IMG/VR virus record: IMGVR_UViG_2541047887_000002
DNA from: a virus
Taxonomy: Duplodnaviria > Heunggongvirae > Uroviricota > Caudoviricetes
DNA: 24,712 nucleotides
Direction: 5' to 3' (one strand)
This document shows positions 1,902-21,952 of the stretch, in pieces (positions within the stretch are counted from its first letter, which is position 1; each line of letters opens with the position of its first letter). The notes beneath the pieces are model-generated. The model ran no database searches. It was given only the letters and a program-made list of their open reading frames with translations, and was not told the DNA's origin. Both the position numbers and the translations under genes were made by a program.

Positions 1902-4900
1902 TCAGGCACTGCATAATCCTCCGTCCCGACGTGATGACTGCATAATTGACACAACCCTGCTGTCGATCAGATCCACCAGTCCCCTGGCTGAGCGCGCATC
2001 TATCTCGCCATTGCTCCCTTGATTCTGAATGCTGATGTGATACACGGGAGAATAAACAAATCCACCGCCACCATTCACATTTCCAATGGCCCTGACCCCA
2101 AGAGAGCCGTCCGCTGCCCGTGTCAGTGGCATGATTGCTTCAGGCCCGGCCTCGCCCATCAGCCCGGCACCTTTCGCAAAAGCAAAATACGTCGGGGTAT
2201 CCACAATGGTGTTACTGTAAGCACTCAGATTTGCCGATGTATAAACACCACCTTTTGCGTTTGCCACTGCACCGGAAAGCCAGTCGCCGACTGTACCAAG
2301 CCATCCTCCGGCACCGGACATGCTTTTGGAAAGTGACTTCAGCCCGTTAACGATGGCAGCGTTCATCAGAATTTTTGAAACTTCCTGGAGAATTGAACTC
2401 CCCCAGTTTCTCCAGTCCACAACATTTCCGGCCAGTGCATCGGAAATATTTGATACCAGCCCGTCCATAGTGGAAACGACAGCATCTGCCGCCTGCGAAG
2501 CATAATCGGTGGCACTGTCTGCCCAGTTCGTCAGTCCCTCCTGGAGTCCGGCATTCCAGTTACTGCGTAAAGCATCAGCCTTTGCATAATAATCCTGCTG
2601 ATCGCTGAGACGCTCTTCCAGATATTTTTCATTCAGAGATTTTTCCTGTTTCCACAGGGCTTCTTCAATTTCTCCGGCCTGATACTGTCTCAGTAGCTCG
2701 TTATTTTTCTGCTCAAACTCCTGCCGGATGCTCCACATTTCCTGAAGTCGTTCACGCATCCGTGAGCCTTCACCATATCCCAGTAACTGAGCCTCATTTG
2801 ATGCTCTGACACTGGCATTACTGTCCGCCAGACTGCTCTCATACGCAGCAAGCTGCTCACGAATCTTTTTCTGGTCGATGAGTGCTGCATTCTGCAAAAG
2901 CGTTTTTTTCTGCGCTTCTGACAGGGTTGATAATTCGCCCTGGCTGACCTGATATTTCATCTTAGCCAGTTCAGTATTCTGCCCTGCCAGTGCTATTTGC
3001 TCTTTTTGCTGTTTAATCAGTTGCTTATAAGTATCTTCTATTTTTTCCGCTTCGGTCTTTTTATGCGCTTTGGGTTTATTTGCCTGGTTATTTCGCCATG
3101 CATCCAGTGAGTTATTTATATAATTCAGTCTTGCTGTCTGATACGCCTCTCCCACAAAGCCGAGATCATCCGCAGCATAACCCAGGCGGGCACGCTCACG
3201 AGCTTCCCCCTTCAGGCGGGACAGAGCCAGTTCGCGCTCGCTGTTATTCAGTGCGGTCTGCTGTTTATCATCCAGGGTTGCCTGTGGTAGCCGTAACGGT
3301 ACATTCACCAGCCCCTGTCGCTGCTGAAGTAATTCATTACCGAGCCCGAGAAGGCGATTAAACTCGGTATGCTGCCCATTCATGATCAACAGGGACTGAT
3401 ACGCTTTGTTTTGTTCCGCTGCCTGTTGACGGATCAACGCCACCCGTCGCTCCTCCAGCCCGGCAAGCACATCCTGAATGGATTGCGCTTTGCCCTGCAT
3501 TTGAGTGAGGCGAGACTGTTCAACTGCCAGTTGATTTGTTGCTTCTGCAAGCCCTTCTGTGACAGTTTTTACCGACGTCATGTGGTTAATCATAAAACCG
3601 TTATCGGTTGTCCAGCCCGGGTTTGCCAGCACATACTGATAGCCAGCAATTTTTTCCTGTAAGGATTTAATCTTACTTTTCTGCTCGTCAATTAACCTGT
3701 TTTGCTCCTTCAGTGCCTGTCGCGTCTTTTCCTCATTATCTGACGCTTCAGGAAGCGACATTGCCGACGTTTTCTGGCGAATTTCGTCGATTGTTGCGGC
3801 ATACTGTCGTGCAGATTCTCTGGCCTGCTCCTGATTCTGATACATCGTGTACCAGGCCGCAGCCCCCAGCATGACGAGTCCCGGCACACCACCAACCAGC
3901 CCCAGCGCGCCACTTAATAAACGACTCCCCACTGACGTAACATTATTCAGCGTTGTCTGTGCCGCTGTTCTGGCCGCAATATTACGGGTAAGTGACACCT
4001 GGGCAGCTGTCAGCTTCGCTTCTGCTGCGGCCTGCCTTTCGGTACCGCGAGCAGCAACAACCGCCTGTTGCGCACGATAAACCGCCGCACGCGCCCTGGC
4101 GGTTGCTATCTGTGTCCCCCGAAGTTGCACTTCAGCAAGAGCCACTTCGTTTCTGGCTGCAGTAATTAATCCGGCAGTTGCAGATCCAGCAGACGACGCC
4201 ATATTGCCAAAATATCGGGCTACCCCGACGGCAACCAGAGCACCAGCAGCGGTTGCCACGGTGTCAATATTGCCTGCAATACCATTCAGCACACCGGAGA
4301 GCGTCTTCGTCACTCCGCTTGCCTCGTTCGCACCACCAACCCAGGCCATAAAGGCGTTTTCAACTTTGGTTGCAGAGGATGAAACCGTATCAGGCATTGC
4401 TGCATATTCATCACGCAACGCCCCAAGCTGACTAATCAGTGCAGGAACAACCTTATCGGCGGTCAGTTTTCCGTTATCCGCCATGGCCTTCAGATCCTTA
4501 CGGGCAACCCCCATTCCCGCAGCCAGCGCACGAATAACACGATCGCCGTTCTCATTCACCGAGTTAAACTCTTCACCGCGCAGCACTCCCTGCGCCAGTG
4601 CCTGACTGAACTGCGTGATCACCGAACTGGCTTCTGCTGTACTGGCACCGGATAATTTCAGGCCCGTGGAGATCGCCTCGGTGACTTTCAGTACCTCCTC
4701 AGAACTGTAACCATACTCCCGCATGGAAGCTGCAGAACGGGCAAAAAGGCTGGCGTTATCAGAAAACGCCGTCCCCGTTCTCTGGCTGATCGCCATTAAT
4801 TCACGCTGTGATGACTGAAAATCATCACTGGACTGTGAGGCCTGCTTCAGACGGGCATTTACTGAATTCCACTCATCGGCGAGAGAAATAAGATGACCGG

Positions 4901-5147
4901 TAGCAAAAGCCCCGGCAAATGCCCCCGCCATGTTCAGTGCCGAAGATTTAGCTGTATTTATCTGATCCGTCACTTCTGCCAGTGCACGCCGCATTTCACG
5001 GGATGCAGCAGCGGACTGTCGGCCTCCGTTCTGCATGGTACGGTAGTAATCCTGCCCCATACGCGAAGCCCGGGAGATCTCTGACTGGAATGACCGGGAA
5101 TTTGCCGAGATTTTAATAATCAGTTCACGTAATGTCGCCACACTCAT
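1902..5147 (-). CDS. H: Tail tape measure protein (1081 aa)
   Basis: Very long ORF with a coiled-coil, Ala/Gln-rich middle and a Gly-rich C-terminal part. It sits between GT and M as in lambda and HK97. GGAGA Shine-Dalgarno upstream of ATG 5145-5147. Confidence 0.9.
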   Translation of the reverse strand: MSVATLRELIIKISANSRSFQSEISRASRMGQDYYRTMQNGGRQSAAASREMRRALAEVTDQINTAKSSALNMAGAFAGAFATGHLISLADEWNSVNARLKQASQSSDDFQSSQRELMAISQRTGTAFSDNASLFARSAASMREYGYSSEEVLKVTEAISTGLKLSGASTAEASSVITQFSQALAQGVLRGEEFNSVNENGDRVIRALAAGMGVARKDLKAMADNGKLTADKVVPALISQLGALRDEYAAMPDTVSSSATKVENAFMAWVGGANEASGVTKTLSGVLNGIAGNIDTVATAAGALVAVGVARYFGNMASSAGSATAGLITAARNEVALAEVQLRGTQIATARARAAVYRAQQAVVAARGTERQAAAEAKLTAAQVSLTRNIAARTAAQTTLNNVTSVGSRLLSGALGLVGGVPGLVMLGAAAWYTMYQNQEQARESARQYAATIDEIRQKTSAMSLPEASDNEEKTRQALKEQNRLIDEQKSKIKSLQEKIAGYQYVLANPGWTTDNGFMINHMTSVKTVTEGLAEATNQLAVEQSRLTQMQGKAQSIQDVLAGLEERRVALIRQQAAEQNKAYQSLLIMNGQHTEFNRLLGLGNELLQQRQGLVNVPLRLPQATLDDKQQTALNNSERELALSRLKGEARERARLGYAADDLGFVGEAYQTARLNYINNSLDAWRNNQANKPKAHKKTEAEKIEDTYKQLIKQQKEQIALAGQNTELAKMKYQVSQGELSTLSEAQKKTLLQNAALIDQKKIREQLAAYESSLADSNASVRASNEAQLLGYGEGSRMRERLQEMWSIRQEFEQKNNELLRQYQAGEIEEALWKQEKSLNEKYLEERLSDQQDYYAKADALRSNWNAGLQEGLTNWADSATDYASQAADAVVSTMDGLVSNISDALAGNVVDWRNWGSSILQEVSKILMNAAIVNGLKSLSKSMSGAGGWLGTVGDWLSGAVANAKGGVYTSANLSAYSNTIVDTPTYFAFAKGAGLMGEAGPEAIMPLTRAADGSLGVRAIGNVNGGGGFVYSPVYHISIQNQGSNGEIDARSARGLVDLIDSRVVSIMQSSRRDGGLCSA

Positions 5148-5187: not shown

Positions 5188-5876
5188 TCACTGAGACACT
5201 ATTAAAAGCGCGTTTTCCAGTCCAGCAAATGGATCTGATACGCCTTCTGTCTGCTCCTTCTCCCACTGAAGAAGCGCATCATTCAGTGGCACTTTGACCC
5301 CCTGCGCACCGTAAACAGCTGAAACAATCTGGGCAGCCCGGATATCAGCCCGTTCGTCCCCCAGCGGGCTGAACCTGTCAAATTCTGCCCACATCATGAT
5401 TTCTGATGCGGACATTTCCCGGCGTAACTCTGACAATGTGCGCCCCATCCTGAGCGCCAGCATCATCAGAAAACGCATCCCCGGAAGCGCTACTTTTTTT
5501 TAACCTCGCCGGCATCACTGATTAGTTCCAGAGACTGCCGAAGAAGCCGCGCATGCACCGGGCCATACACGGCAATCACCTGTTCACGATCATCCTCTGA
5601 AAATACAGGTTGCAGTCCGGTATCACACAGAACATCGATGAACAGTTCAACATCCGCTTCCAGATTTCGGCGGGCGCGCTCCGCAACGGATAACGGTGTC
5701 TCATCATCTTTTGCTTTAACGATCTCCTGCCAGCGCAACCAGGCTTCTGCAGAAGGTTCCCGTAATACAACCGTTGCCCCTTCCCATTCAGGCACATCAA
5801 CAGTTTTATGGCGAAACCCCGACATCGTTGCCAGTGCCAGATTACGGATATTTTTAGTCATCACATCTATCCTCAT
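5188..5876 (-). CDS. GT: Tail assembly chaperone GT, made by a programmed -1 ribosomal frameshift
   Basis: Minus-strand heptamer A AAA AAG (plus 5493-5499) sits just before the G stop TAG. The -1 frame is open from the slip site to the stop at 5188 and encodes ...KKVALPGMRFLMMLALR.... Confidence 0.75.
5490..5876 (-). CDS. G: Tail assembly chaperone G
   Basis: 128-aa acidic protein ending GEVKKK-stop. Its start overlaps the V stop (TAATG). Its 3' end carries the slippery heptamer. Confidence 0.85.
   Translation of the reverse strand: MRIDVMTKNIRNLALATMSGFRHKTVDVPEWEGATVVLREPSAEAWLRWQEIVKAKDDETPLSVAERARRNLEADVELFIDVLCDTGLQPVFSEDDREQVIAVYGPVHARLLRQSLELISDAGEVKKK
5493..5499 (-). promoter_or_regulatory. 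-1 frameshift slippery heptamer A AAA AAG for G to GT
   Basis: Read directly from the sequence. The conserved G/GT frameshift of long-tailed phages is established knowledge. Confidence 0.7.
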
Positions 5877-6580
5877 TAACTGACGGTAACAGTGCAGGAA
5901 GTAGAGGTCACTTTGTTAACCGGGCTTGCTGAATCAGAAATCTCGCAGGTATATGCACCCGCATCACCGGATACTGCCGATGCCTTACTGAACGTTGCCG
6001 CCGTCTGTCCGGAAACAGGAGAACCACCTTTCTTCCAGACATAAGAATAAGGCGGCACACCACCCGCAGCCTCAACCGCCATTTCAAGTTTCGATCCGGA
6101 AGCAACCCGCAGCGTGCTTTTTAAATCGACCTTCACTTTCAGCGGCTCTGTCGTCAGCACAGGTTTACCTTTCAGGCGCAGAGAAAACGTTGCAGCCACA
6201 ACACCATTGGTTCCTGCAGACCAGGTATGCTGACGCACCTCTGCCATAAAGGTAAATCCGTTGCCTGACGGAAAAATAACTTTAAAGCCATACGTGGTGT
6301 CATTGTCATAGGCACTGCGCAACGCGTTCTGGGCAGCATTGAGGTAAAAGTTGCCTGACATGGAAATCTCTGAAGCAGCACCAAGGCCGTTAATATTTTC
6401 CTGCTCAACAGAACACAGCGTGGTGACATCAATATCCTGCTTTTGTCCTGCAGTAAACTGCACCTCTTTGATTGTACAGCTCAGGCCAAGATAGCTGGCA
6501 GAATCCAGGGTTTCTGCTGTTACCGGTGCAGACGAAATCATAATTTTCGTCAGTTGCGAACGCTCAAAATTAGAGGACAT
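5876..6580 (-). CDS. V: Major tail protein with C-terminal Ig-like domain
   Basis: ATG at 6578-6580 (MSSNFERSQ...) with an AGGAGA Shine-Dalgarno. The C-terminal segment GGVPPYSYVWKKGGSPVSG...AGAYTCEISD resembles a Big_2/Ig-like domain. Confidence 0.85.
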   Translation of the reverse strand: MSSNFERSQLTKIMISSAPVTAETLDSASYLGLSCTIKEVQFTAGQKQDIDVTTLCSVEQENINGLGAASEISMSGNFYLNAAQNALRSAYDNDTTYGFKVIFPSGNGFTFMAEVRQHTWSAGTNGVVAATFSLRLKGKPVLTTEPLKVKVDLKSTLRVASGSKLEMAVEAAGGVPPYSYVWKKGGSPVSGQTAATFSKASAVSGDAGAYTCEISDSASPVNKVTSTSCTVTVS

Positions 6581-6596
6581 ACTCGTCTCCTGAAAA

Positions 6597-6618
6597 TAAA
6601 AAACCCGCCAGCGGCGGG
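6597..6618 (-). terminator. Intrinsic terminator-like hairpin upstream of the major tail gene
   Basis: Minus strand reads CCCGCCGCUGGCGGG followed by UUUUUAUUUU, in the gap between the tail completion gene and V. Confidence 0.45.
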
Positions 6619-6639
6619 TGGGTAAAATCATTAACGACC

Positions 6640-16629: not shown

Positions 16630-16632
16630 CTC
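16630..16632. repeat. Target-site duplication CTC, left copy
   Basis: Identical 3-bp CTC flanks both IS ends (16630-16632 and 17883-17885). Confidence 0.7.
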
Positions 16633-16704
16633 TGAAGTGGTTTACTGAATTTGGCCACCTGAACAGAGGTGATATGCTCACCTCAGAACAACACAGGTGC
16701 CATA

Positions 16705-18093
<1,389 letters not shown>

Positions 18094-18258: not shown

Positions 18259-18264
18259 GCATGT

Positions 18265-18294
18265 AAAAAGGCCCCAACACATGTGCGTGGGGCC
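18265..18294 (-). terminator. Minus-strand intrinsic terminator-like hairpin
   Basis: Minus strand reads GGCCCCACGCACAUGUGUUGGGGCC followed by UUUUU. Confidence 0.45.
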
Positions 18295-18494
18295 TGAGAG
18301 TATACATGGTTTCAGTCAACTGCATGGTGCCGGGTGCCTCCCGGTGAATTCAGTACCAGCACCTGAATCCGCGATTATCCCATATACCTACTCGCTGATT
18401 GCCCCTCCGCACAGGGGGATTCACCATGCCAGTTTCTTTTAACAAACTCCCCGCAAAACAGACAACTGTCAACCGTCTGAATTGTGAGACATTT

Positions 18495-18534: not shown

Positions 18535-18611
18535 TGGCGCGTTGTACTGGATTCGAACCAGTGACCGATTGCTTAGAAGGCAATTGCTCTGTCCGGTTGA
18601 GCTAACAACGC
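18535..18611 (-). tRNA. tRNA-Arg (anticodon UCU)
   Basis: Hand-folded cloverleaf: acceptor GCGUUGU/ACAACGC, D-stem GCUC/GAGC, anticodon stem AUUGC/GCAAU with loop CUUCUAA, T-loop UUCGAAU, encoded 3' CCA. Confidence 0.75.
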
Positions 18612-18624
18612 AGGGTACAGATAA

Positions 18625-18701
18625 TGGACCGCCATCGAGGACTCGAACCCCGCGCAACCAGCTTCGAAGGCTGGTGCTCTATCCTGATGAGCTAATGGCG
18701 G
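18625..18701 (-). tRNA. tRNA-Arg (anticodon UCG)
   Basis: Hand-folded cloverleaf: acceptor CCGCCAU/AUGGCGG, D-stem GCUC/GAGC, anticodon stem CCAGC/GCUGG with loop CUUCGAA, T-loop UUCGAGU, encoded CCA. The 5' end is uncertain by 1 nt. Confidence 0.65.
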
Positions 18702-18708
18702 TATGTGA

Positions 18709-18784
18709 TGGTGGCCCTTGCTGGATTTGAACCAGCGACCTGGCGATTATGAGTCGCTCGCTCTCACCTCTGAGCTAAAGGGCC
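18709..18784 (-). tRNA. tRNA with anticodon CAU, most likely tRNA-Ile2 (ileX/ileZ-like); elongator Met not excluded
   Basis: Sequence GGCCCUUUAGCUCAG...GACUCAUAAUCGC...GGUUCAAAUCCAGCAAGGGCCACCA closely resembles E. coli ileX as I recall it. Anticodon loop CUCAUAA. Confidence 0.7.
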
Positions 18785-21543: not shown

Positions 21544-21699
21544 TTACTCCTCAGGTTCGTAGACTGTGAAGACAGCGACCTCCGTCTGGCCGGTTCGGAT
21601 TCGTACCTCGCAGAGGTCTTTCCTCGTTACCAGTGCCGTCACTATGACGGTTAAACAGATGACGATCAGGGCGATTAACATCGCCTTTTGCTGCTTCAT
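21544..21699 (-). CDS. hok: Hok-family type I toxin (HokD/RelF-like, 51 aa)
   Basis: MKQQKAMLIALIVICLTVIVTALVTRKDLCEVRIRTGQTEVAVFTVYEPEE is near-identical to E. coli HokD as I recall it. AAGGAG Shine-Dalgarno upstream. Confidence 0.85.
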   Translation of the reverse strand: MKQQKAMLIALIVICLTVIVTALVTRKDLCEVRIRTGQTEVAVFTVYEPEE

Positions 21700-21756
21700 A
21701 GCCTGCTTCTCCTTGCCTTTCGGCACGTAAGAGGCTAACCTAGATTTGCCGTTCAT
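21544..21756 (-). CDS. mok: Mok-like overlapping reading frame (translational coupler for hok)
   Basis: In-frame upstream extension of 70 aa from ATG 21754-21756, as in hok/mok/sok loci. Confidence 0.4.
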   Translation of the reverse strand: MNGKSRLASYVPKGKEKQAMKQQKAMLIALIVICLTVIVTALVTRKDLCEVRIRTGQTEVAVFTVYEPEE

Positions 21757-21952
21757 AGATTGAGCCTCAGATTAATGTTAAGCGTCTTGCAGGACGCGTA
21801 ATGTTAACTGGGGCTTTTCTCTATCTGCCTTTGGTGTTCATGCCTGAGGCAGATAGCCTCAAGCACCCGCAGCAATTCTACTTAAGTTAGATAAGCTTTT
21901 CTATGGTATTCTCTCAGCGTCCCGTAAATACAGTCTCGGCTCATCATTTTTA

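Follow-up and report, generated by a model that had tools for sequence, protein, structure and literature searches.

The A AAA AAG site at the G/T junction of an Escherichia coli lambdoid prophage, and the same heptamer in a separate IS3-family insertion

In many tailed phages, as in lambda, a tail gene is followed by a segment that lies in another reading frame. The locus described here raises the question of how such a segment is translated. In an E. coli prophage, the tail gene G ends on the heptamer A AAA AAG, and the frame that runs on behind it, T, lies one base back. The same heptamer is also present elsewhere in this DNA, in an insertion sequence (IS). It was therefore asked whether G and T are joined by a −1 ribosomal frameshift, and whether the site in the IS has any bearing on the one in the phage gene. 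The initial annotation had called a −1 fusion at both places, and had taken the occurrence of two such events in one stretch of DNA as a check of each by the other. It is highly probable that the phage site is a case of ordinary programmed −1 ribosomal frameshifting that gives a minor G-T fusion, that the IS site works likewise, and that the two are independent cases on A AAA AAG.

The window, i.e., the whole analysed stretch of 24,712 nucleotides, comes from an E. coli lambdoid prophage that has head genes of the HK97 type, and covers its late region. Its G/T region is 100% identical to prophages of E. coli CE10 and other strains. Once the IS is removed, the window differs from the prophage of E. 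coli M1/5 by 4 mismatches in 23,147 bases. The major tail gene, the G/T unit (5188-5861) and the tape measure gene follow one another, all on the minus strand (Table 1). The major tail protein is matched by Pfam Ig_2 above the cut-off and by Phage_TTP_11 below the threshold. As G/T is flanked by the major tail and the tape measure genes, it occupies the canonical G/GT position.

Table 1. Positions of the features discussed, in coordinates of the window
Feature	Position	Strand	Remarks
Tape measure protein	1902..5147	-	directly downstream of T; Pfam Phage_HK97_TLTM (E 2e-93), TMP_3, Tape_meas_lam_C
T segment, -1 frame after the slip	5188..5493	-	101 codons + TGA; Pfam and PHROG matches
Gene G, tail assembly chaperone, 123 aa	5490..5861	-	ATG 5861, stop TAG 5492-5490
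Slippery heptamer A AAA AAG (phage)	5493..5499	-	X XXY YYZ phase; last two sense codons of G
A8 run containing the phage heptamer	5494..5501	-	sequence
TAA of the -1 frame, directly 5' of the phage heptamer	5500..5502	-	reading frames
Major tail tube protein, C-terminal Ig-like domain	5876..6631	-	directly upstream of G; PHROG 158 major tail protein, E 8e-111
CTC target-site duplication, 3 bp	left 16630..16632, right 17883-17885		sequence; empty-site comparison
IS3-family IS, 1250 bp (NCBI name ISEc52, IS911-like)	16633..17882	+	imperfect terminal inverted repeats TGAAGTGG...CCACTTCA, with 5'-TG...CA-3' ends
orfA, 100 aa	16705..17007	+	ATG 16705, stop 17005-17007; Pfam HTH_Tnp_1
GGAA at the place of the SD-like GGAG of IS911	16942..16945	+	11 nt 5' of the heptamer; alignment
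orfB frame (-1)	16953..17852	+	starts at the ATT codon directly before the heptamer, ends at the stop; Pfam rve, E 1.6e-31
Slippery heptamer A AAA AAG (IS)	16956..16962	+	in phase with orfA; identical in the compared IS911 and ISEc52 copies
Predicted branched stem-loop 3' of the IS heptamer	16962..17039	+	single-sequence fold, z = -0.46, not significant alone
Class II holin gene broken by the IS	17728..18093	-	70 native residues + 51 IS-encoded residues (121-aa ORF)

At the end of G, the minus strand reads GAG GTT AAA AAA AAG TAG. The TAG, which is the zero-frame stop, follows the heptamer directly, and the −1 frame, once past its own TAA, is open for 101 codons as far as the TGA at 5190-5188. 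With the TAA in the −1 frame on one side and the TAG in the zero frame on the other, the window for a productive shift is exactly the 7-nt heptamer. Both halves carry the domains of known families. G matches Pfam PF06222, Phage_TAC_1 (the lambda gpG family), over the full profile (positions 1-124; E 2.8e-58; 195.7 bits against a cut-off of 25), as well as PHROG 344, tail assembly chaperone. In the modelled G-T fusion, which is 224 aa long when counted from ATG 5861, the T part matches PF06223, Phage_tail_T (lambda gpT; E 8.2e-19; 68.3 bits against a cut-off of 25.9). The fusion is also matched by PHROG 337 and PHROG 14766, the latter being a 224-position profile that spans both halves; in the NCBIfam scan, no model matches it. 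For G, an upstream ATG at 5876 is an alternative start, from which the protein has 128 aa. The predicted junction peptide of the −1 fusion is ...AGEVKKKVALPGMR..., and the G-T junction sequence predicted at the slip site is ...DAGEVKKKVALPGMR. This G/T pair is present in 902 of 5426 complete E. coli genomes. The heptamer being in phase, the 101 codons being open and both Pfam domains being present, the reading of this site as an A AAA AAG with an open −1 frame behind it is upheld.

The bare heptamer A AAA AAG occurs 12 times on the two strands of the window, against an expectation of 5.4 +/- 2.3. Only two of these copies, those of the phage gene and of the IS, combine a place in a real gene with the slippery phase and with a long −1 continuation. 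Of the remaining 10, some are in terminators, some on the non-coding strand and some in real genes but in the wrong phase. As both of the downstream frames carry Pfam domains (Phage_tail_T, E 8e-19; rve, E 2e-31), the arrangement is not the product of chance.

The conservation of the site was followed in two sets of relatives. The first consisted of ten phages with G proteins that are 28-69% identical, and at the homologous G/T junction all 10 have a site that is slippery or nearly so. It is A AAA AAG in Stx2 phage 1717, Serratia OS31, Burkholderia phi1026b and Bcep176; G GGA AAG in HK542 and Salmonella SW-37; A AAA AAA/C in a Halomonas phage; G GAA AAG in HK446 and SaltyDalty; and A GCA AAG TAA in a Klebsiella phage. 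In the records of HK446 and Bcep176, a joined G-T product is already annotated. For the second set, one genome per GTDB species was scanned with an alignment of six G sequences as the query, an alignment of 9 sequences having proved too divergent, and 73 loci of 40-70% identity were obtained. At 71 of the 73 loci, G is followed by a −1 ORF of 80 codons or more; the two loci without it look like damaged copies. Three homologous loci, among them that of Leclercia adecarboxylata NCTC13032, were also seen with a broken G/T, either with T in frame 0 or +1 or with a truncated G, and these are probably decayed prophages or assembly indels.

Every one of the 71 loci has an in-phase A AAG inside the G/T overlap. 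The heptamer is canonical in 50 of them (45 with A AAA AAG and 5 with G GGA AAG), and in the other 21 only the in-phase A AAG is kept. The non-canonical forms include G GAA AAG, of the HK446 type, and A GCA AAG with TAA directly behind it, of the Klebsiella and Pantoea types; their sequences suggest slippage of a single tRNA-Lys, possibly aided by the stop codon. The stop of G follows the slip motif directly in 45 loci. The length of the A run at the site varies from 3 to 9, with 7-9 A in 43 loci and only 3-4 A in 26 (G GGA AAG, A GCA AAG and G GAA AAG), and the distance from the end of the heptamer to the conserved T motif LALRxGRTL is constant at 32 or 35 nt in the homologues. Taken together, the in-phase A AAG in all loci, the variable run and the constant spacing indicate, at the level of sequence, that the conserved feature is a phase-specific translational slip site and not a homopolymer. 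Along with the domain homology of G and T and the gene order, this in-phase site in 71 of 71 informative loci bears out the recoding call for the phage genes.

How would the fusion be made? From the homologues and the literature, we infer that slippage occurs, what its efficiency may be and how the chaperone works. Most ribosomes on G would stop at the TAG behind the heptamer and release the 123-aa chaperone. In a small fraction, the tRNA-Lys(UUU) species paired to the P-site codon AAA and the A-site codon AAG would re-pair one base back on AAA AAA, and translation would resume with GTA through the T frame to yield the 224-aa G-T fusion. By homology to lambda, the G part would bind the tape measure protein and the T part would recruit the major tail protein. 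A low and fixed GT:G ratio would thus be written into the mRNA. In lambda, G and GT are made at about 30:1, and the arrangement is widely conserved (PMC5009743). The lambda ratio depends on the thiolation of U34 in tRNA-Lys, and there, too, the G stop is adjacent to the slip site (PMC3296357). Such an adjacent stop, found in lambda and in the 45 loci mentioned above, may help by slowing the decoding in the A site.

The efficiency of A AAA AAG is known to vary widely with its surroundings. In a reporter, it gave 0.29% frameshifting without stimulators, 4.3% with the stimulators of IS911 and 39% with the IS3 pseudoknot (PMC4066793). No conserved RNA structure was found 3' of the phage heptamer with RNAalifold, which returned 0 pairs for 9 homologues. 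The window's own hairpin near the site (z -2.8) begins about 21 nt downstream of the heptamer; it was considered as a stimulator and rejected, being not conserved and too far away. Upstream, there is a GAGG at 5507-5504. Its distance from the heptamer falls on the limit of the 6-17 nt reported to be stimulatory for SD-like elements, or slightly beyond it (PMC4066793), and the GAGG is not conserved in the homologues.

An Rfam scan of the whole window detected STnc100, sok and three tRNAs, and found no frameshift element among the Rfam families. These RNAs are encoded on the minus strand at 18259-18458, 18535-18784 and 21694-21868 (STnc100, the three prophage tRNA genes and the sok antitoxin RNA). 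STnc100 is situated just upstream of the holin gene, and the sok antitoxin RNA adjoins hokD. The three prophage tRNAs are Arg-UCU, Arg-UCG and one with a CAU anticodon, annotated as tRNA-Ile in RefSeq. The idea that a tRNA-Lys of the prophage itself tunes the slippage was rejected, as none of the three is a tRNA-Lys.

The ribosomal reading has to be weighed against others, the simplest of which is that the split between G and T is only a homopolymer indel, of sequencing or of mutation, in what is truly one in-frame G-T ORF. Homopolymer runs are indeed error-prone, and four IMG/VR contigs have A7 instead of A8. However, among the 106 IMG/VR contigs with the same flanks, which are otherwise A8 (102 independent contigs), the A9 allele that would fuse G and T in frame is found in none. 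The 80 loci obtained through protein similarity all have A8, as do 5 RefSeq and phage records, and the two-frame arrangement is conserved across genera. The four A7 contigs come from four different sequence backgrounds; in them, T falls into the +1 frame and G is longer by about 40 residues, with no fusion, so that they represent either homopolymer sequencing errors or (recurrent) inactivating mutations. An indel bringing G and T into one frame, the possibility raised in the initial annotation, was therefore not encountered. The existence of a single true ORF is extremely improbable, and by these sequence comparisons the two-frame arrangement is real, a sequencing indel being excluded at the population level. 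It is also possible to imagine that no recoding takes place, the heptamer being incidental and T being made separately, by termination-reinitiation or by its own initiation at ATG 5478 or 5466. These ATGs lie 11 and 23 nt past the G stop, and T is a stand-alone CDS in RefSeq and in several phage records. Nevertheless, neither ATG is preceded by a good Shine-Dalgarno sequence, and no homologue has the −1 frame closed between the slip site and the first Met, a stretch in which K-V-x-x-P is conserved. In HK542 and phi1026b, the first Met even falls inside the conserved motif F-L-M-x-L-A-L-R. The in-phase A AAG at 71 of 71 loci and the extent of PHROG 14766, whose 224 positions cover both halves, also argue against it, as does lambda, in which T is made only as GT (PMC5009743, PMC3296357). 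A separately made T is, thus, very unlikely.

More weight has to be given to the RNA polymerase. Instead of, or besides, the ribosome, it may stutter on the T8 template and add one A; the A9 mRNA would then be read straight from G into T, and GT would carry an extra lysine at the junction (EVKKKKVALPG). The run here is eight A long, and runs of 7-9 A stand at the site in 43 of the 71 homologues. Bacterial RNA polymerase is known to slip efficiently on 9 A or T, and 8 A are apparently used productively in some IS elements (PMC5009743, PMC1088944). On the other hand, the 26 homologues with only 3-4 A still keep the −1 arrangement, and for this reason transcriptional slippage is not the conserved mechanism. 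The invariant feature is the in-phase A AAG, which is a translational trait, and not the length of the run; the phase matters to ribosomes and not to RNA polymerase, and it is always the slippery one. The lambda site, GGGAAAG, is also known to shift ribosomally (PMC5009743, PMC3296357). Transcriptional slippage on the A8 run could contribute, but as the explanation of the fusion it is unlikely. A combined reading, in our estimate quite doubtful, takes A8 as a signal at two levels, where stuttering of the polymerase (A8 to A9) and −1 slippage of the ribosome both feed GT, and where the A7 alleles are partly rescued rather than dead or erroneous. If true, it would explain why 7-9 A, more than the heptamer needs, predominate in the G genes of enterobacteria. 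Programmed −1 ribosomal frameshifting, thus, stays as the preferred reading of the phage site.

The second site of the window belongs to the IS, and there the same slip would fuse OrfA to OrfB into the OrfAB transposase, aided by the predicted branched stem-loop downstream. The −1 frame has 296 open codons, up to 17852, and the modelled OrfAB fusion has 382 aa and matches the NCBIfam model transpos_IS3 with 380.6 bits. The claim of a −1 OrfAB fusion at this heptamer is hence supported by its phase with orfA and by the open 296-codon frame. The recoding call is further supported by the cassette itself, which from the ATT codon through the heptamer and for another 58 nt does not differ from that of a copy annotated as IS911. 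The predicted stem-loop would correspond to the three-way-junction stimulator of IS911, and in its basal stem two changes in the 3' strand, relative to the IS911 copy, keep the pairing (A-U to G-U, and C/A to C-G).

The name of the element needs some care. Copies named ISEc52 by PGAP, such as that of E. coli Nissle 1917, are 100% identical to the IS. With a Shigella dysenteriae copy that RefSeq annotates as IS911, it shares 94.2% DNA identity and 368 of 380 OrfAB residues. By the ISfinder convention, isoforms share at least roughly 95% DNA identity. The designation IS911 given in the initial annotation fits the 1250-bp length, the sizes of OrfA and OrfAB and the heptamer; it is imprecise as regards the NCBI name ISEc52, the 94.2% identity and the GGAA in place of GGAG. 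By alignment, the upstream GGAG stimulator of IS911, 11 nt 5' of the heptamer, is absent in this IS. The change from GGAG to GGAA is synonymous in OrfA and is also present in the ISEc52 reference copy. The GGAG of IS911 stimulates frameshifting, and it was mutated in order to build the reporter without stimulators (PMC4066793). In IS911, this GGAG is both the frameshift stimulator and the ribosome-binding site for AUU-initiated OrfB. With GGAA in its place, a lower output of OrfAB and OrfB than in IS911 is predicted.

Another difference lies near the end of the element, where a run of A6 (17841-17846) stands against A5 in the 1249-bp RefSeq copies of ISEc52 and IS911. Owing to the A6, OrfAB ends in ...RYWKKL (382 aa), 7 residues shorter than the ...RYWKNSNxVASFC (389 aa) of the A5 copies, and PGAP flags identical IS copies as frameshifted pseudogenes. 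This pseudogene flag is given although the length of OrfAB equals that of the experimentally studied IS911, for which an OrfA of 100 aa and an OrfAB of 382 aa are published (PMC2909936). Of 5426 complete E. coli genomes, 4886 contain sequence that matches this IS, and near-full-length copies are present in 1800.

The IS entered the prophage separately and recently; it lies within the holin gene and is oriented on the opposite strand. It is flanked by the CTC duplication, whereas in E. coli M1/5 the site is empty, with the sequence ...TTACTCTCCCCGTG... uninterrupted. The insertion took place 8 bp from the 3' end of the holin gene, so that the final residue, E71, is replaced by the 51-residue tail read from the IS. 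The 1250 bp, in antisense, now stand between the holin and the rest of the lysis/late operon, G/T included, and lysis timing and late-gene expression may be affected. The initial description of the two sites was correct in its coordinates; it missed the A8 run, the stop right after the phage heptamer and the position of the IS on the opposite strand within the holin gene.

This history decides whether one site can vouch for the other. Since the element transposed independently, with its own CTC duplication, and is missing from the otherwise identical prophage of E. coli M1/5, the proposed mutual validation of the two events is invalid. That both use one heptamer is to be expected, as no other efficient −1 site is as common in E. 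coli as A AAA AAG, which stands in 45 of the 71 G/T homologues and in 6 of the 8 IS clusters in Table S4 of Sharma et al. 2014 (PMC4066793). The only true connection between them is the tRNA, since each relies on tRNA-Lys(UUU), a single species in E. coli, and on the modification of its U34. On account of this shared dependence, changes in the host's U34 modification should shift tail stoichiometry and transposase output together.

Both of the frameshift cases are already documented; each represents a known family and a known type of feature, and the current understanding is unchanged by them. For annotation, they do have some consequence, as RefSeq and most phage records list G and T separately, with T from an internal ATG and without the fusion product, which only a few curated records, those of HK446 and Bcep176, show. 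In the RefSeq and GenBank entries for the identical prophages, G is placed at 5490-5861 and T, as a gene of its own, at 5188-5466, and a fusion feature is missing.

Among the known systems, the gamma/tau site of E. coli dnaX has the same A AAA AAG heptamer and the same slippage of tRNA-Lys. In dnaX, a strong upstream SD and a downstream hairpin bring frameshifting to about 50%, and the frameshift product is the shorter protein. The phage site differs in that no conserved stimulator was found with it, and in that its frameshift product is the longer protein.

The nearest model for the phage site is G/GT of lambda, described by Levin, Hendrix and Casjens in 1993 and by Xu, Hendrix and Duda in 2004 (both as cited in PMC5009743 and PMC3296357). 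The two share the PF06222 and PF06223 families, the order of major tail, G, T and tape measure genes, the −1 shift on the final codons of G, whose stop directly follows the heptamer, and an A-site AAG read by tRNA-Lys(UUU). They differ in the heptamer itself, which is G GGA AAG in lambda and A AAA AAG here, and consequently in the P-site tRNA, which is Gly in lambda and Lys here. In addition, the heptamer here sits in an A8 run, and the capsid and connector genes are HK97-like.

The heptamer itself recurs in the cluster of ECs1801, the tail assembly chaperone of an E. coli O157 Sakai prophage, listed as A_AAA_AAG_25 in Table S4 of Sharma et al. 2014 and marked 'true', i.e., safely inferred (PMC4066793). 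It resembles the present site in being a tail assembly chaperone gene of an E. coli prophage, in conserving A AAA AAG in phase, and in that its −1 product is the longer one. The comparison was made with the G of the lambdoid Stx phage 1717, presumed to belong to that cluster. That G is about 68% identical to the G of the window and has A AAA AAG with TAG directly behind it, though in an A6 run in place of the A8 found here.

Similarly, the IS site has its counterpart in IS911, a member of the IS3 group, which is entered in the same table as A_AAA_AAG_3 and is also marked 'true' (PMC4066793). The OrfAB frameshift of IS911 is known from Polard et al. 1991 and Rettberg et al. 1999 (as cited in PMC4066793 and PMC2909936), and the fold of its downstream stimulator is branched (PMC5009743). 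Both are 1250-bp elements of the IS3 family with an OrfA of 100 aa, an OrfAB of 382 aa and a 3-bp target duplication. In both, ATT stands before A AAA AAG, and the 58 nt 3' of the heptamer are identical; a branched stem-loop is predicted for the element of the window. The element of the window is set apart by its 94.2% DNA identity to the annotated copy, by the NCBI name ISEc52 and by GGAA for GGAG.
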